Below are positions 44,048-64,000 of a stretch of DNA of 64,000 bases, in pieces. This stretch comes from Eledone cirrhosa (taxonomy: Eukaryota), in NCBI GenBank assembly GCA_964016885.1, contig OZ024741.1, positions 208,010,001 through 208,074,000 of the forward strand, in the 5' to 3' direction. The translations under genes and the position numbers were made by a program. Numbering within the stretch: position 1 is the stretch's first letter; the number at the start of each line of letters is the position of its first letter. The notes under the pieces were generated by a model, which ran no database searches, had not been told where the DNA came from, and was given only the letters and a program-made list of their open reading frames with translations.

Positions 44048-44126
<79 letters not shown>
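44048..44126. repeat. (TA)n microsatellite
   Basis: Pure TA run. Confidence 0.98.
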
Positions 44127-44128
<2 letters not shown>

Positions 44129-44315
44129 AAAAGAGTCAGGACCCCGACAGCTGAGCTCCGACTGCTTCGACAGCTAGTTCAGAACTAGCTGTCGAAACGG
44201 CCGGAGCTCAACCGTCGTGGTCCTGACTCTTTTCCTATTACCCACTCTACATCCCATAGTATGGAGTACTCTGGTGCGTTATGGTCCACCTGGTCCCTTA
44301 CCACACTTCCTCCGG
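44125..44315 (+). mobile_element. Hairpin + tail element, copy 1 (putative non-autonomous Penelope-type)
   Basis: Imperfect inverted repeat 44125-44237 centred on 44181, then tail TTACCCACTCTAC...GAGTACTCTGGTGCG...CCTTACCA shared with 56205-56283 and about 58757-58829; flanked by (TA)n. Confidence 0.7.
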
Positions 44316-44358
44316 TATATATATATAGAAGTAGTGACACAACAGTTAGTTCACCATA

Positions 44359-44581: not shown

Positions 44582-44629
<48 letters not shown>

Positions 44630-44633
44630 AGAA

Positions 44634-45258
44634 GGTTATAGTTCACTTGAAGCATTGTGTAATGAGGTATAAACGTTTGAATATGTATAATAAAGCCAAA
44701 ACAATGCAGGTATTGACATAGAAAAAGGAATGCAATTGCAAAAGATATTGTTGACAATTCGTCTTTTACCTTAGATTTATTTTAAACGTCCTTAATTTTC
44801 GAGATAATATCTCTTCTTCAGAGGGAAATAAAGGTCTCAAACCAGCGTTCTAAATATCTTGCCAAGCCATGCTGACAGGAAATAGTATAGAGTATCTGTT
44901 CTATCTCTAATGTCAAAGAGTTAAAATTAGGTGGATAAAGAGTAGTCTCCCTTTAAAAGGGGTTTGTTTAGGGTTTTTTTTATATACATGCCTGTTTAAG
45001 TGTGTGGGAGAATGCATGAAGGTGTAAGTATGTGAGTGTGTGTGTGTGAGTGTGAGAAGATAAGTCTATTCGTAAATGTGGGGGATAGGTGTTATCTGGT
45101 GTTAGAACTGGTTTTGTGTGTGGATGTGTGAGAGAGAATTAGTGGAGGTGTAAGCGTGTGTGTGTGTGCGTGCGTGTGTGTGTATGGGTGTGTAAATATG
45201 GGGCTAGAAGCCCTATCAGGTTATAAATTGGGTGTTGAGTTCTAGTCTATTATTGATA
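44634..45258 (-). repeat. PLE 3' pseudo-LTR
   Basis: Near-identical direct repeat of 47759-48386; contains the ORF end, the UTR and the ORF start. Confidence 0.93.
44776..44832 (-). ncRNA. Hammerhead ribozyme motif in the PLE 3' pseudo-LTR
   Basis: Minus strand UUUAUUUCCCU-CUGAAGA-A-GAGAU-AUU-AUCUC-GAAA-AUUA-AGG...AAAUAAA. Confidence 0.7.
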
Positions 45259-47780
45259 GGTGGTTGTGTTTTATCTATAATTAGTGCTTCCTTAATTCTA
45301 AGATTGCCGAGGTTTCTTTCCTTAGTTTCTATCCTAACTGTTATGGTTTTGTCGGTGTTTTTGCATTTAACTAGGTGTTTCTTAAATGAGGAAGCGTTAG
45401 TATTGAGGTGTTCTTTTATTCTTATGTGGAGTGGTCTGGTGGTGCTACCTACGTAGAAGTTGTTGCATTTGTCACACTCTAGTCTGTATACGACGTAAGC
45501 CTGGTGGCATAGGTCTGTGTCGTTGATGGGGCAGTTGGCTAGTCTGCAGCAGTTGTCATGTCTGGTGGAGTGTCTTTTGGCTAGCTGTCCGCGCAGAGAA
45601 GGACCTGAGTGGGCCAGTTGGATATCTAGTCCTTCTCGTCTGATGGCTCTGCGGATGGCTATTGTTGTTTCTTCACTGAAGTGTGGGAGCTTCAGGAAGC
45701 AAGTGTTAGTGCCTCGGGTGTGGTGTCCTCTGTTCTTTCTGGCACGGTTTGTGGTGGATGTCGTGTATCCGTTCAGTTTGAGTACTTCCAGGAAATGTGT
45801 GGTGTGTGTGTCTCGGTCTCTAGCGTCGGTGCATTTGTTCCGGATACGTGCCAGTTCGTTCCTTATGTATCCGAACTTGGCACCGAGTGGGAGGGCCGAT
45901 CTGAAATGTACGAACAGGTCCCTGCTGGCGGCTTTTTTTATAGAAGCAGGTCTGGATGTTGCCTTCCTCTGTTACCCTGAGTTAGAAGTCCAGTAGGGAT
46001 AGGGATCCGCGGTCATCGGGGTGTTCCATGCTGAACTTTATACTGGCGTCCATGCTGGAGAATGTTGTGTATATTTTATCTGCCTCCTCACGGGATGATG
46101 TGAGGATGAGTGTGTCATCTACATATCGGGTGAAGAAGGCATGGGAATAGCAGGTGTTGAGGGCTCAGCATTCTAGCTGGTTCATGTAGGTGATGGCCAG
46201 CAGGCCCGATAGGCTGGATCCCATGGGTAATCCTGTTGTCTGTATGTGTGGTGGTGGAAGGTGAAGTACGTGTTGTCTACTGTGAAGGACAAAAGCTGGT
46301 GTATGTCCGTCGGGTGGAGGCCGTAGCAGTGGATGTCCTCTGCGACCACGCAGTCCGTCAATAAATCGACAGCTGGATGATCGGGGACTGTAGTGTAGAG
46401 TGAGACAACGTCGAGGCTAAAAGCGTATTTATTTAGTTTAAGTTGTTCTGGCTGGAGTTGGTGTAGTCTACGTATAACTTCGTCGGAGCTACTGACATGC
46501 CCGGGAAAGGTGGAGAGTAGAGGCTTGAGGACCTGGGAGAGGAGCCAGGAAATTTTGTATAGGGGTCCTTCTATGCTAGAGACGATGGGTCTTATTTGCG
46601 TCTTAGTGCTATTCTTATGGGTCTTGATGAGGTGGTAGAAAGTGGGCAGTCTGCTATTTCTAGTGGTGTAGTTGAGCTTAACTTTATTTGGGAGTTGTCT
46701 TCTCCTACAGATATCGAACCAAATGGAGTTGGTATGTTTTTCGATCTGGGCTGCAGTCATGTCCGGGATCTCTATGTATAATTCATTGTCGCTTAGGTGT
46801 TCAAAGGCTAGGTTATTGTATGTGGCTTGAGAGATGACGCAAAACTCTTTACCTTTGTCGGATGGTAAGTATATAAGTTCCCTATTCCGTAGGTTCTTCA
46901 GGGCGAGTTGTTGTGTCCTGGAGAGGTTTGGGGCTATCTTCTTCTGTTTCCGTATGATGTTAAATACGGAATGTTTTTCTTCAAGCTCGCGGTTGGCAGG
47001 CGGTGGACAGAGTGGGCGATCAAGTTGGTATATCGGGAATCTGGGTTTGATAGATTCCGTGGTGTTGTTGCTGAGAGTCGATATCCATTTTAGTTGGTAG
47101 GCAGCCCGACAGAAATTCGTTTCTATGTCGAGCCATAGTTTGTCGTCCAGTCTCTATTTCAATATGAACTTGGGACCCAGGCTGAGGAGGTCTAATTCCT
47201 CTCGGGAGAGGGATCCTGTCAAGTCTGTGACAAGGTGTTTTGCGTCAGGTGTGTTGTTGGTCGGAGCACCGCTAGGTTCGGTGTTGGTACCGTCTTGTTC
47301 GTCTCTGTTGGTGCTTAGAGTTGGGATGTTGTTAAGACAATTGGCCGTCCTGAGTTTGAGAATTGTTTGCGTTAGACGTATTTTCTCGTAGTCTCGGCGA
47401 TGGTGGTATGACCTGTCTATAGTGGCGGAGATGAATCTGGACAGAGATTCTGGGGTTTCAGCGAGTTGTGGTACAAGGCTGGAAATAGTCCGTATGTGAT
47501 GTTGTAGCGTGCGGTGTAGGTGTTGTATGAGTTTTCTTAGGCAGATTTTTTGTATGTAACTAAGTGATCGTTTGAGGTCTGGTGATTTGAAGCATGTTGG
47601 TAGGTGCAAATTTTTGATAGTTTTGGGGATGATGTTGTTATTCAGGCATCGTTTTAGGAAGTTTATTTGGCAGCCGGCTTTGGCGCGCTTTTCAGATAGC
47701 TGGAAGAGTTTCTTTACAGTTGTGAACTGGGCCTGGCTCAGGCATAAGGAAAGGAGGGGGTTATAGTTCACTTGAAGCAT
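45216..47780 (-). pseudogene. PLE ORF (telomerase-related RT plus GIY-YIG endonuclease), disrupted
   Basis: LSLGPKF, PTFYHLIKTHK, RPIVS, SLDVVSLYT, RYVDD, and C-terminal CCRLANCPI..LC..VVYRLECDKCNNFYVGSTTRPLHIRIKEH...EALII...IN. Confidence 0.92.
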
Positions 47781-48381
47781 TGTGTAATGAGGTATAAACG
47801 TTTGAATGTGTATAATAAAGCCAAAACAATGCAGGTATGGACATAGAAAAAAGAATGCAATTGCAAAAGATACTGTTGACAATTCGTCTTTTACCTTAGA
47901 TTTATTTTAAACGTCCTTAATTTTCGAGATAATATCTCTTCTTCAGAGGGAAATAAAGGTCTCAAACCAGCGTTCTAAATATCTTGCCAAGCCATGCTGA
48001 CAGGAAATAGTATAGAGTATCTGTTCTATCTCTAATGTCAAAGAGTTAAAATTAGGTGGATAAAGAGTAGTCTCCCTTTAAAAGGGGTTTGTTTAGGTTT
48101 TTTTTTTTATATACATGCCTGTTTAAGTGTGTGGGAGAATACATGAAGGTGTAAGTATGTGAGTGTGTGTGTGTGAGTGTGAGAAGATAAGTCTATTCGT
48201 AAATGTGGGGGATAGGTGTTATCTGGTGTTAGAACTGGTTTTGTGTGTGGATGTGTGAGAGAGAATAAGTGGAGGTGTAAGCGTTTGTGTGTGTGCGTGC
48301 GTGTGTGTGTATGGGGTGTGTAAATATGGGGCTAGAAGCCCTATCAGGTTATAAATTGGGTGTTGAGTTCTCGTCTATTAT

Positions 48382-48386
<5 letters not shown>
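47759..48386 (-). repeat. PLE 5' pseudo-LTR
   Basis: Direct repeat of 44634-45258. Confidence 0.93.
47901..47957 (-). ncRNA. Hammerhead ribozyme motif in the PLE 5' pseudo-LTR
   Basis: Same sequence as the motif at 44776-44832. Confidence 0.7.
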
Positions 48387-54212: not shown

Positions 54213-55591
54213 CTAGTACCCCCCCCCCCTTATCCTTCGATTCACTTACCTAATATCTTCACTTTCCACTTTTTACTTCCCTATTTTCTTTACTACCTGA
54301 TTACATAAGTCACTTGCGTTTTCCACTCCAGATATTTTCTGTTATTTCGCAGCCAATTTTATATTTTTATATTTGTACTCATTTATTCATAAGACTGCTT
54401 TACACCCTGTATCTATGTGTCTGAGCGTCTTTATGCGTGTATACGTTCTGTATATGTACACGAACGCCTCCGTATGCGCGGGTGCGTGCGTGTATATATA
54501 TGTGTATGTATGTGTGTTTTTATATCTGTGTTTATATCTATGTTTTTTACATTCTTATTTTTATGTGTGTGCGTGTAAGCGGGTCAATGTACGTGAATAT
54601 GTTTGTGTATGTGTGTATATATGTATTGTATGTACGGATGTGTATGTGTGCGTGTATATATATATATATATATACAGTCGCGTACGTACGTGTGATTAGA
54701 TATACATGGGGCGATATGTATGTATATGTATACGTGCATCCTGTGTAAGTATGTACGCATGCATACGCTTTTGTCTGTACGTATTGCGTGTATATATATG
54801 TTTTCTTATAGATATATGTTTTTTATAGATATATGTGTATGTACGCGTGTATCTTCTTTTCTTTTCTTTTCTTTTCTTTTCTCTAGTGTTAATTGACTAC
54901 TTTCTCTTTCATTTAACATTTTTTTTCTTTCTCACATATTGTTTAATTTTTATACATATATCGAGAATGACACTTTTAACTATTACACTCCCTTCCCCCT
55001 TTATCTTCCGCATATAAGTGATCGCGCGTGTGTGTGTTTTTATACGCGTGCTTTCATATTCATATGTGTTTCTAATACCTGCTTCTGGATTCGTCTCAAC
55101 TAGATTATATATATGTGGTTACATATATGTATATGTGGTTACATATACACAAATATACTTGCCCTCATATATGTACTTACGCACACATGTTCACCATACA
55201 CACGCATTTTTACATACATACATATGTACATTTGTGAGTGTATACATATACACACACCTAACTATATTTCCTTATATTTTTTATTTATTTTTTATATATT
55301 TTATATGTCTATTGCATTAACTTTATTTATATATATATATTTTTTTTGCATTTCTTGAGGAGACTTTCCAAATATTTCACTATGTTTTATATTGCCTTGT
55401 CCGACGAACGAATGAGGACGTTTCTTTCGTATTCGTCTTATTCGGGAAACCTCTGGTAATGAGGTAATTATATTGTATTGTTTATTATACATTAAATTTT
55501 GCTCTGGTACTTACATAGAACACTCTTCACTCCTATGACTTTTTCAATTCCAACGGAAACTTCAATACATATATATATTTATATATATATA

Positions 55592-56283
55592 TAGGAAAAA
55601 GTTTAACACGCGACCGCCCTCCAGCCTACCATCTCAATCTATTCCCGTCCACCGCACGACCAACCCGCAGCCGCCTTCATCCTCCTCCTCGACACCCACC
55701 GAGAGAAGAGCAAAGAAAACGAAACGAACGACACGAACGGCGCAAACCGGCCGCCCGACCCACGCTCGGACGTCGAGTCCGACGCCAACGCTACAGCCGA
55801 CGCCAACGCTACAGCCCCGGTAGCGCCAATGTAGGTAAGGGAAGTCGGCAAAATGGATCCGTACCTTCGGAAGAAGGATTGGCTCCGAGGACCGGGTCGG
55901 TCGAGTCGAGTGTGTGTCGGTCTGTTGGCCGTCTCCTGGTTTTTTACTCGGGTCGGTCTCGTGGCACGTCTGTACGCGAAGCGGTGAACGGGTACGGGGC
56001 TGTAGCGTTGGCGTCGGACTCGACGTCCGGGCGTCGGTCGGGCGGCCGGTTTGCGCCGTTCGTGTCGTTCGTTTCGTTTTCTTTGCTCTTCTCTCGGCGG
56101 GTGTCGAGGAGGAGGATGAAGGCGGCTGCGGGTTGGTCGTGTGGCGGACGGGAAGAGATTGAGATGGTAGCTGGAGGGCGGTCGCGAGGTTAAACTTTTT
56201 CCTATTACCCACTCTACTACCCTAAGTATTGAGTACTCTGGTGCGTCATAGTCCATCTGGTTCCTTACCATACCTCCTTCGTT
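55592..56283 (+). mobile_element. Hairpin + tail element, copy 2, carrying 28S rRNA-derived sequence
   Basis: Inverted arms 55592-55819 and 55995-56204, a spacer containing a 28S motif, and the shared tail 56205-56283; TA-flanked. Confidence 0.75.
55827..55890 (+). pseudogene. 28S rRNA conserved-core fragment
   Basis: CAATGTAGGTAAGGGAAGTCGGCAAAATGGATCCGTACCTTCGGAAGAAGGATTGGCTC matches the conserved eukaryotic LSU segment preceding expansion segment D8; no rDNA context around it. Confidence 0.88.
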
Positions 56284-56329
56284 ATATATACATACATATG
56301 CGCGCACACATAAATACATGTGCGTTGGA

Positions 56330-58658: not shown

Positions 58659-58690
58659 CACATACACACATGCACACACATATATATATA

Positions 58691-58825
58691 TGAAAAGATT
58701 CAGGACCCCGACGGCTGAGCCCCGGCCATTTCGACAGCTAAGATCCGAGTTCGGATTACCCACTCTATTAGCCCAAGTATCGAGTACTGGTGGGCTATGG
58801 TCTAGCTGGTTTTTCTCACACCCTA

Positions 58826-58829
<4 letters not shown>
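58691..58829 (+). mobile_element. Hairpin + tail element, copy 3 (right arm missing)
   Basis: GAAAAGATTCAGGACCCCGACGGCTGAG...TTCGACAGCTA matches the left arm of copy 1; tail TTACCCACTCTA...GAGTACT..ATGGTC; TA-flanked. Confidence 0.65.
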
Positions 58830-59599: not shown

Positions 59600-62500
59600 T
59601 TTTTTGTAAATTTCTATTAAAAAAACTGAACTAATTGTTTGAAAAAACATATCATTTTGTAGATTAACCCCCAAGCTGAATTATCAGCTGGGTGGTAATC
59701 CCATTTTTCGCCCGAAAATTTAATTTAAAAAATTGTTTAAAAAAACCAAATTTTGCCGACTATAAAGCACGAATAGCTCGAAAAGAACGCTAGAGAACGT
59801 CGACAGAGAGAAGAGAGGTAAAGAGGCAGATATTAACGTTATATCTGCTTCTGCTACTATGGACGTCGCCATAGATGCGACTGTCAACAAAGAGAAAAAA
59901 ATATTACCACTTGAAGATTTTAAAATTTCTACCGTCGAAGCGTAGAAAAATAACACAAAACATACACAGGAAAAGACAGGAATTAAACCTATTAATATAC
60001 ATACACATGAAAAATCCAACAACAACAACTCCATAGATACATCTACAGATAAAATTTCACCTCGTCAAGCAATTGCGATTTCCAACACCGAGGTTAACAA
60101 CGCTAACAACAACAACAGTAACACCACAAAAAAATGTCTTTCGCTGAAACAGAGAACAAAAAACAAGATTTTATAAATCTTGACATCTCCAATGCAAGAG
60201 ATATGCTCCAGCAAGGGAGAAAATGTGTAACTTTCGAAGACAAGGGTGGGTTTAGAATCAACACACCCCTCAAAATAAAAGAAAAGACAGTTCGAAGGAC
60301 AGTGACCTCCAGGACTGTCTCAAACACAACGAGAAAGCCAATATTTGTGAGTGAAGGAGATATAGAAGCCACCTTGAAGGAAACTCAAGAAAATATTGAC
60401 TTTCTTCAACGAGGAAAACAGTATGAAAGTATTTCCGTACTTTTTAAAAGCGAGGCACTCGCCCAAAAACATTCTGTGACACCAATGGTGTCAAAAACAT
60501 TCACCCCTTTCCCTACGTACATCGGAAAAAGGACACAAGAAATAAAAATAAAAAATATACGACCAAACATTAACATCTGGTGGATCTTGGCTGGGTTCGT
60601 GGAGCCAGAGACTGATGCTATTCTTTCAATACGAAAGTCTAATTGACAAAGGTGGGCGGGTATTGATTTGGAGATTCTGATGCAGATGAAGCCCGAGAGA
60701 ATCTCCAAAATACCCGAAAAATTGGTCATCGACGACAACAAAAAAATGAACGTTTCGGTGGAGGAGTGTAACCCTCATTGCTTTCGCTGTGGTAGACCAA
60801 CACACCTAAAGGCCTCCTGTCCTTCGCAAACACACCACAACAACATCATTAAAAAAACTCTTTTACCAACACCAACACCAAAACAACCACCACCACAAGT
60901 ACAACAACAGACGAAACGAGTAAATACACCAAAACAAACAGCCACACAACGAACAACAACAGAAAAAACACAGACAACACCCCTGAAGAACACAGCCCCA
61001 CCCTATCCCACTCCATCAAACACTACCACAAACACACACACCGAAATACCATCACCACACAAAATACACCTACCCCACACTCCTGACGATGATTATTCAT
61101 TAACAGATGAGGCTGCTTCTCCTTCTTTAAGTGAAGAAGGAGAGCCTCGGAAATTTAAAAAAACAAAAAAAGAGACACCACAAAACCCCCAAAACTCCAA
61201 TCACCCACACCAACACACAACCACAGACACAAACAACAACACAAACAACACCACAGTCAAACATCCCCCTACCAGCAAAACCAACACCAATACAACCCCA
61301 AATACAAGCACCCACCATAAAAAGAAAACTCCCGGACGAACAACAAACTAAAACAACAACAAAAACACAAACAACAATACGCATACATCAACACAAACAA
61401 CAAGAGTTTGATGGATGTCATCTCCCAAAACCCCAAGGTGGAGACGGAGGGCAAAATTTTCGTCAAAGCAGAATCGTCTCCACACCTAAAACTAATAAGG
61501 GTTTCGATAGAAACCTATCAGAAATTGAAAGATTTTTCGCAGGATGTTGGCAACCCCTGTCAAAAACCTATTAACCACGTCTTATAAAAATGTTTCCCCA
61601 CCCCACCCAACACCCCCACCAGAACTGAAATGGAGAATGAACAGCCCGATCGAAAAGGTAAGTACACCTTTTCGTCCTTTTCGCCAACTCTTCTCCACCA
61701 ACATGGCTAGTTTACGAGTTGGAAGCGTGAATGTGCGTGGCCTAGGGATGCCCTGGAAATAGGGCCAATTTTGAACGACCTTAAGTCATACGGTATGGAT
61801 GTGATAGCCATCACCGAGTCCAGGATCCACAACAGACATCAACTAACCCCCATCTTCGACGACTTTGAGATCTACGCATCTCTCTGTCAGCCAGGACGTG
61901 GAGGGGGGGGGGCTGTCATGTTTCGGAAGAACCTGGACGTCGAAGTACAGCAAGTACACTTGGACCCGGAGCGTAGACTGGTAGTGCTAGACGTGAACAG
62001 TATTGGAGGTGGAGCCTTCAGACTGGTGGCCGTTTATGCCGCGACCGAGCAATCGCAATCACGGCCAGACTTCTTTAAGCGTCTAGAGTCTTTTCTGGGA
62101 ACGTCTCATCCTTATTTTTAGTGGGGGAGTGGAATGGTAGCCTAGATGCACGATGGGACTATGTGGGAGCATGTCCAAGTAGAGGAGGGTGCAACAGCCT
62201 TAAAACTTTAATCGGCCAATTCCAACTGGCCGATAGGTATCGACTGGATTTTCCGACTGCACCACAGTGGACGTGGTCAAACCGCAGCGGGACATCTAGA
62301 TCGTCTTTAGATAGATTCTTCATTAGAGAAAGGAACAGGGAGATGTTAATCTGTCCACGAATGCACATGGTTGCTTATTCAGATCACAAATTAGTCGTCT
62401 GCATAGTCAACCGTGACAGAACACATAGACAGGGACCCGGATACTGGAAGCTGAACGTGTCGTTGCCGGCACGTAAAGCTTACAGTGAACGCATAAGTAG

Positions 62501-64000
62501 AATAGTCAAGCAGCAGTTAACGGGAGACATCGTCAACAATAGATAGTGGTACTCTCTCAAGAAAGCAATTAGAATAGAATCGATAGGGTTTAGCAGAGAG
62601 TTAGCCTTAGAGAAAAATAAAATAGAAAGAGAACTAGTAGCCAAGGAGAAGGAGGCACTTAGAAGTGGCAAAGTGGCTAGTGTGTTAGCGTCGAGAACGG
62701 CACTGGACCAGTTCTTCGATGCGAAACACGAAGGTTGCGCGGTCAGAAGCAAAACACGTGCTCTAGGAAACGCAGGAGCGAAAGCTATCAGCTGGGCCCG
62801 AGTGGCGGAGGCAAAATGTGGCAACAAGTCCCCGATTCGGTCTTGGAAAGACCAAAACGGACGCGTGGTACTTGACCCCAAGCTAATGTGCGCGGCCTTT
62901 CAGCAGCACTTTCCACGACTGTTTGAGCAGAACGACGGTGAGCCGAACGGGACAATGGACTTTAGTTCATACCTCGACTGCCTGCCGCGTCTCTCGAACA
63001 CGGACGCCGAGTTCTGCGAAAGACCGATCACGGACATTGAGATACGGGACGCTCTGGGCCGCTGCGGGATGGCCTACCCTATGAGTTTTACATAGGCATG
63101 CCGGACATGTTCTCAGGCGTCCTCGAAGCCGTCTACTGCAATTGGCAGCAGAACGGGAGAATTACCAGTTCTGCAGGTAAGGGCGTAGTAACGCTGATCA
63201 GGAAAGACGAGAAGAAGGGGTACGAAATTAACAACTTCAAGCCCATAACTCTGCTCAACACAGAGTTAAAAATTTTGGGCAAGGTGCTAGCGACAATGTT
63301 GGCGCCTGTCCTCGAGAACCTGGTAGGGAAAGCGCAAACGTGTGCAATCCCGACCAGATCCATACACGACAACCTCCACCTCATGCGATACATCATAGAG
63401 AGGGTGGGTAGTAAACCCGGCTTCGGTGGGGTTCTGATCAATTAGGATCAGTTTAAGGCATTCGATAAGGTCGACCATCGATACTTGGAAGCGGTTTTCA
63501 AGGCGGCCGGTTTTGGTCCCGTTTTCAGAGGCTGGATCGAGGCGATGCACACCAGCATTTGCTCGAGAGTCAAGGTGAACGACTACCTACTGGAGCCGTT
63601 CGCAATCACGCGTTCCATTCGACAGGGTTGCCCTCTCTCCTCCATTCTGTACGTATTGTCTCTAGAGCCACTACTGCGGAAATTGGAGCTGTTGCAGGGC
63701 ATCCTTCTAGAACCGGGACTGCCCAAAGTGGCGTCAGATTATGCCGACGACGTGACGGTAATGGTGTCGAGCACCTCGGAAATCGGGGTGATCGGCAACT
63801 TACTGAAAGAATACGAAACGCTGACAGGAGCAAAACTAAACCCGGACAAGTCTGTCGGTTTGCAAATCGGTATGTGGAGGCAAACCGATGACGTCCGACA
63901 ACGTCGTTGGACGCTGGACGGACGGATCGGTGAAATTGCTAGGGGTCTGGTTCGGTCCAGACCTCCAGATAGAGAAAAACTAGAACGAGGTTACGGCCAA
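59600..64000 (+). mobile_element. Tx1-group copy K (A subfamily, decayed, runs off the window)
   Basis: 5' UTR hairpin at about 59665, ORF1 remnants to 61661, ORF2 from ATG 61703 with APE and RT motifs. Confidence 0.93.

Follow-up and report, generated by a model that had tools for sequence, protein, structure and literature searches.

The closest described systems to the locus reported here are Penelope-like elements (PLEs) of the Hydra clade (PMC8557442), fusions of 28S or U6 RNA with LINE-1 (PMC13174262; PMC6789731), the 28S-derived SINE28 (PMC4994717) and the metazoan non-LTR retrozymes (PMC7229834), each taken as far as the consulted part of the paper describes it. For a PLE of anole in vitro, cleavage and extension of both strands are described, with starts at two neighbouring internal sites that mark the limits of its tail (PMC11167929, in part). 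Hammerhead ribozymes of PLEs are reported to include U3-A8 cores and to have low activity in vitro (PMC4209133, in part). The ligase RtcB is described as joining cyclic-phosphate to 5'-OH ends in U6/L1 chimeras (PMC6789731) and as ligating hammerhead products (PMC7229834), and the D8 segment of mammalian 28S is described as prone to cleavage (PMC5523017, in part). A search of mainly open-access literature listed no description of an rRNA chimera made by a PLE, nor of a joint that lies on the hammerhead cut of a PLE; the supplements of PMC8557442 may list the family and its hammerhead. The unit studied here lies in a window of 64,000 nt of Eledone cirrhosa DNA (contig OZ024741.1, positions 208,010,001 to 208,074,000), in the coordinates of which it is described below, and is probably a one-off, dead PLE insertion.

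Structure of the unit and its parent element

The unit has inverted arms at 55591-55798 and 55998-56205, which are 96% alike over 209 columns (7 substitutions and 2 one-base indels), and TA runs adjoin both of its ends. The original prediction of arms of about 210 bp around a 28S-bearing spacer, in (TA)n and with a tail of about 80 bp on the right arm only, is therefore confirmed by the alignment. On the left, a (TA)n target tract (55567-55593) is followed by an inverted piece of PLE core without the tail (55594-55609, minus strand), which is the inner end of the element, and direct tailless copies of the family stop at the same TTTTCC site. The arm alignment then gives an inverted copy of the 28S-derived sequence 55995-56185 (55610-55819, minus strand), in which an 18-nt tandem duplication (55779-55816) extends the left arm to 55819, and its mirror reaches back to 55995. 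A 28S rRNA fragment of 368 nt lies at 55818-56185 on the plus strand and consists of a conserved core and then an expansion segment; the CG at 55818-55819 is common to its start and to the end of the left arm. Family alignment identifies 56186-56202 (plus strand) as PLE core from the predicted ribozyme cut to the inner end site, and the 80-nt tail (56203-56282, plus strand), present on the right side only, is 96-97% identical to the best family copies and is followed by a TA-rich target remnant (56283-56300). Because the 17 nt of the arm at 56186-56202 are PLE sequence, the 28S/PLE joint falls between 56185 and 56186 (plus strand), inside the arms and not at an arm end. RNA of the unit is predicted to fold into a long hairpin (-519 kcal/mol). 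A reading of the unit as a MITE or a DNA transposon is ruled out by its asymmetric arms and by its carrying the tail of an RT-bearing element.

The sequence 56186-56282 comes from the end of a PLE that targets (TA)n and is abundant (1720 and 1853 first-look candidates, which are not copy numbers); its copies have a 5' extension of varying length and end at the 3' side with either the tail or the inner TTTTCC site. The parent element is 3.3 kb long, contains direct repeats resembling a pLTR and has an RT/endonuclease frame that is broken; the tail is joined to it in two loci, L094 and L095, so that the predicted link of the tail to PLEs holds. The broken frames of both loci show YRDD, the RWR and DKT motifs and a C-terminal IYQC..HIG region. 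By eye, neither has a cysteine pair between the GIY- and YIG-like motifs, i.e., no CCHH, and in the linker of L095 CxC is present and the third Cys of CxCX5C is replaced. Atlas neighbours of the parent at 0.91-0.94 carry HTH_animal, RVT_1 and GIY-YIG; no Pfam family was found for three parent frame fragments, and a PDB search with the parent frame fragments gave nothing relevant. By its motifs and its (TA)n target, the parent matches the description of Hydra-like PLEs in the consulted part of PMC8557442, and on these sequence features it is Hydra-like. A second Hydra-like PLE in L095 (4630-6141), with a 504-aa open stretch and a full CxCX5C, lies head to head with the parent copy and is 35% identical to it. 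The window itself also bears two further short copies of this PLE end (44126-44316 and 58690-58828), which represent sister subfamilies; the one at 44126-44316 is a tailless-inverted foldback in (TA)n. Another PLE-like element lies on the minus strand (44628-48386), with GIY-YIG at 45219-45971 between 634-bp direct repeats that are 98% alike. A dense array of roughly eight non-LTR retrotransposon copies of 6 kb, lying in either orientation and each ending in (TATC)n, occupies 1-43750 and 60100-64000. In one copy, frames of 679 and 1040 aa are open, and the longer bears RVT_1 and zf-RVT; the array gives the impression of a LINE that targets microsatellites and is building up a cluster of its own copies.

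Among the 181 distinct copies of the family examined, 83 are foldback copies, in 76 of which the left arm begins at a (TA)n tract like that of the window unit and stops at the tail boundary against TA-rich sequence; the left arm includes the tail in 3. Among 167 copies with a tail, 162 have A/T-rich sequence at their end, as has the right end of the window unit. The tailless inverted 5' copy, put forward in the original prediction as a PLE hallmark, is thus standard in this family, and the window unit can be regarded as a normal family insertion with foreign sequence inside. At three diagnostic sites that vary among subfamilies, the two arms agree in 72 of the 83 copies, against a mean of 17 and a maximum of 32 in 10,000 shuffles, which indicates that both arms derive from one template. 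The left arm carries PLE sequence that is missing from the right side in 49 of 74 copies, taken from pattern sets and chosen for short right sides, and hence was not copied from the right side. We infer that two cDNAs are primed at the two ends of a break, in agreement with the anole PLE in vitro as described in part of PMC11167929. Because the 28S/PLE joint is present in both arms of the window unit, the template was likely continuous across the joint, or else both enzymes jumped at the same end. A mirrored joint of this kind indicates one template for both arms of PLE inverted insertions.

The 28S-derived piece and its source

The claim of a 28S core, which was to be checked by alignment to the host 28S genes, stands: 55818-56152 is 85% identical to a genomic 28S locus (L002, which itself scores 1062.6 bits to Rfam RF02543) within an 18S-5.8S-28S unit, and about 85% identical to 28S loci on several chromosomes. 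In the window, RF02543 aligns from 55827, at model position 1896, with 22.6 bits (E 0.006), which is below gathering, and at the gathering threshold Rfam finds no family in the whole window. The GC/CpG-rich stretch was likewise rightly suspected to be an expansion segment, being the one that comes after the same core in the genomic 28S genes, and we take it to be D8, the name used in the original prediction. The 28S piece is in sense and lies wholly inside one insertion, between two PLE ends that adjoin TA tracts.

The 33 nt before the PLE part (56153-56185) have no alignment to present 28S loci. They do align to a dispersed 28S pseudogene of older type (L021), and this local alignment stops at 56185. 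The best genomic relatives of L021 are the two arms of the unit, which rank above the present 28S loci (23 candidates, all scored). Since the arms differ from each other by less than 4%, most of the 15% distance from present rDNA is older than the insertion. This divergence of arms and rDNA suggests that the 28S source was an older rDNA type, and the unit would preserve the expansion-segment sequence of an rDNA type absent from the assembled 28S loci. In L021 (G000:C7 near 5.632 Mb) the older-type fragment at 1501-1830 has no PLE ends and begins 24 nt downstream of the start of the window fragment. It was also observed that 15 of 18 readable 28S loci (20 examined) are interrupted by one element at the same 28S position, presumably the R2 site. 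These rDNA units are found on at least eight large contigs, and the interrupting element, which is 1177 bp long with no frame above 105 aa in L096 (6696-7873; G000:C6 near 69.59 Mb), is possibly a non-autonomous R2-dependent element.

Position of the joint and competing explanations

Just upstream of the tail, the parent bears a stem I, a UUGAAAA core with a U3-A8 pair, a long stem II, GAAA, a stem III and a GUC triplet. This is the layout of a type-I hammerhead in the pLTR, for which self-cleavage is predicted. A type-I descriptor with the UUGAAAA core matches 26 of 41 longer copies and fails in 15, and the minimum-energy fold of one copy (L065) is a three-way junction with the core and the cut base unpaired (z -2.36). 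A sister-subfamily copy (L324) retains stem I and has UUGAUAA. Rfam finds no hammerhead in the parent copy L095 at E up to 5. The products of hammerhead cleavage carry a cyclic phosphate on one side and a 5'-OH on the other. In the window unit, PLE sequence starts at G 56186, the first base past the predicted GUC cut, and the C before it is common to 28S and PLE, a microhomology of 1 nt. A 28-nt pattern across the joint has a single match, at up to 3 mismatches, in the 3.0-Gb assembly.

The explanation that we favour, and to which we would give about an even chance, is that a PLE RNA cut by its own ribozyme was joined to a 28S fragment and that the product served as template two times, once from each end of a break in (TA)n. 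The pLTR hammerhead would cut after GUC and leave a 5'-OH piece that retains both reverse-transcription start sites. A 28S fragment, broken in its expansion segment, would then be joined to this 5'-OH end, either by a ligase of the RtcB type or by the RT jumping off the cut end. The PLE protein would nick both strands of the (TA)n tract and prime two cDNAs, one at the tail end and one at the inner site. Both cDNAs would run through the joint into 28S, one for 368 nt and the other for about 190 nt, and be joined at the CG microhomology, which would yield the asymmetric inverted repeat. Ligation proper, as one form of this explanation, is possible and in our view on the unlikely side. At the joint itself the two arms do not read alike (AGG versus TG, the left arm differing in two letters), which is easier to reconcile with two jumps made separately, or with mutation afterwards, than with a single, cleanly ligated RNA.

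A second single-copy chimera at the same PLE site (L177/L204, G000:C24:17764510-17764610, near 17.7645 Mb) has as its foreign part a piece of another hammerhead repeat (202 matches), which runs up to the predicted GUC cut of that repeat, and its joint is also mirrored in the left arm. Its 3-nt GTC microhomology could alone place the joint, and the case was sought in a narrow window near the site. The repeat family concerned (L205-L213) has a canonical CUGAUGA or CUGAGGA hammerhead core and 202 matches, often occurs as inverted pairs and ends near TA runs. Mirrored captures number only 2 in the 181 distinct copies. A screen for foreign sequence flagged 10 of 85 copies, of which 3 were kept (the window unit, L177 and L127) and 7 were set aside on inspection as flank, as TA-interrupted or as diverged PLE. 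Among 48 site and 47 control loci there was no additional foreign joint with a mirror copy, and the 18 unmirrored cases viewed are indistinguishable from plain flank.

Several observations count against the explanation by a ribozyme cut, among them the differing joint letters, the small number of mirrored captures, the copies that fail the descriptor, the Rfam result and the lack of enrichment of PLE 5' ends at the cut that is described below. In L127 the foreign spacer begins one base past the site and is not mirrored. The sister-subfamily copy L324 folds no better than shuffles (z 0.28). The link between the ribozyme and the joint was noticed only once the joint was known. In the consulted part of the anole work, ribozyme cleavage is dispensable for insertion and no reads end at the cut (PMC11167929).

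The strongest rival, possible and in our view on the unlikely side, is an ordinary template switch, in which the PLE RT left an uncut RNA and went on along 28S rRNA, the position at the predicted cut being due to chance. The original prediction had offered rRNA capture by template switching, of which the one-off capture of rRNA fits the locus; what it missed is the ribozyme-like fold of the parent and that the joint sits at the cut predicted from this fold. The sense orientation, the 1-nt microhomology and the unlike joint letters of the two arms are all consistent with a switch, and chimeras of 28S and LINE-1 are known, with 18 human loci, a median of 269 nt and 83% in sense (PMC13174262, in part). 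The 5' ends of the PLE point the same way in being flatly distributed: they are not enriched at the predicted cut, the starts being spread over 0-7 matched bases in 85 copies. The pattern for the site and its +4 control have 48 hits each, where the control anchor is shorter and many of the site hits are longer G runs only. A chance switch would nevertheless have to occur in both cDNAs at positions no more than a base or two apart, on the one RNA as well as on the other. Both mirrored captures fall at the predicted cut, and for the first of them we roughly estimate a few percent as the probability of landing within 1 nt of it by chance.

All readings other than the ribozyme-defined joint and the chance switch are, even taken together, rather unlikely. 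The first of them, improbable in itself, is 5' transduction, which assumes a truncated PLE that had earlier been inserted in a 28S gene, was transcribed together with the pre-rRNA and was copied out along with the flank upstream of it. It would account for the same joint in both arms, its source would be an rDNA type since lost, and the rDNA array is under-assembled (about 20 loci matched versus roughly 500-fold depth over the unique flank contig). Against it, the targets of the family are A/T-rich in the 162 of 167 tailed copies, whereas the expansion segment is GC-rich, and no second copy of the joint exists in the assembly. Capture at the DNA level, to which we assign a similarly low and marginally smaller probability, supposes that repair of a PLE insertion copied in 28S sequence, either from rDNA or from a pseudogene nearby, and that fold-back synthesis then mirrored it. 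Dispersed 28S fragments do exist (L021 and others), and the microhomology and the 18-nt slip at the inner joint resemble repair synthesis; but the PLE-only left arms with sequence missing on the right (49 of 74) argue that left arms are not usually fold-back copies, and the entire 28S piece lies between two PLE ends, each adjoining TA runs.

The original prediction had also proposed a 28S-headed SINE family mobilised by a PLE, which is very improbable. SINEs derived from 28S exist, such as SINE28 (PMC4994717, in part), but a joint that is single-copy is not that of a SINE family, and the last 92 nt of the 28S part (56095-56186) match only the two arms of the unit. Copy number already defeats the proposal, unless further copies are to be found in DNA missing from the assembly, and among the matches listed no other rDNA-bearing upstream sequence is found in the pattern-selected copies.

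Reads were checked in four sequencing runs of one study, three of which are from one sample that may be the source of the assembly (best share 0.42). A read contig on 55602-55760 with a depth of 7.3 (6.4 for the unique flank contig) and one differing letter crosses the left joint, with only 8 letters on the PLE side, which is below the bridging rule. No read contig from the four runs lies over 56103-56176 or across the whole unit, and this absence is uninformative either way. An assembly chimera, for which the missing contigs could be taken to speak, is the least probable reading of all, because the arms differ at 9 places, the ends follow the rules of the family, the 28S part is of an old type that is unlike all present rDNA loci and follows a separate pseudogene, and a read contig crosses the left joint.

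If the ribozyme-cut explanation holds, it may extend beyond this locus. PLE hammerheads may cut in the germ line, and their 5'-OH products may be ligated to other cyclic-phosphate RNAs (rRNA fragments or the 5' halves of other ribozymes). Since neither start site of reverse transcription is lost by the cut, the ligated RNAs may remain able to retrotranspose; we consider this general form possible and on the unlikely side. If it is true, such chimeras would be genomic records of PLE ribozyme activity in vivo and a route to new heads of PLE-dependent SINEs. Joints on the predicted cut would provide a genome-only test of the role of PLE hammerheads, usable in any PLE-rich assembly. The locus itself is probably inert, and its value is mechanistic.

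Comparison with known systems

Going by the consulted parts of the papers, the window unit belongs to a known class of chimeras between RNA and retroelements, of which 28S/LINE-1 is an example (PMC13174262). Like the 28S/LINE-1 and U6/LINE-1 chimeras described there and in PMC6789731, it arose when, in a single event, a fragment of a cellular RNA was fused in sense to the 3' portion of a retroelement. Unlike those chimeras, it was made by a PLE and has no poly(A) or L1 target site; its joint is duplicated in an inverted arm, and the acceptor end is the predicted ribozyme cut of the element. With SINE28 it shares a dispersed sequence derived from 28S. SINE28, however, is described as coming from the 3' end of 28S, as multi-copy and as transcribed by Pol III (PMC4994717), whereas the unit bears internal 28S sequence, is single-copy and has a PLE end.

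The metazoan non-LTR retrozymes, in the consulted part of PMC7229834, resemble the present case in having type-I hammerhead products, in ligation by RtcB in vitro and in that PLEs are proposed as their mobiliser. Those elements are tandem monomers that circularise, whereas the window unit itself lacks the hammerhead and has a foreign RNA as the partner. The Hydra-clade PLEs, as described in part of PMC8557442, share with the parent the DKT motif, the C-terminal GIY-YIG-like region and the CxC part of the linker, with RWR in the parent for RWK, as well as the (TA)n targets, the pLTR-like repeats and the tailless inverted 5' copy. The parent differs from that description in a tail of 80 nt, compared with 30-40 nt, and in a hammerhead with a U3-A8 core and a long stem II, and the window copy differs further in retaining only 97 nt of the element and in bearing foreign RNA sequence in both arms.
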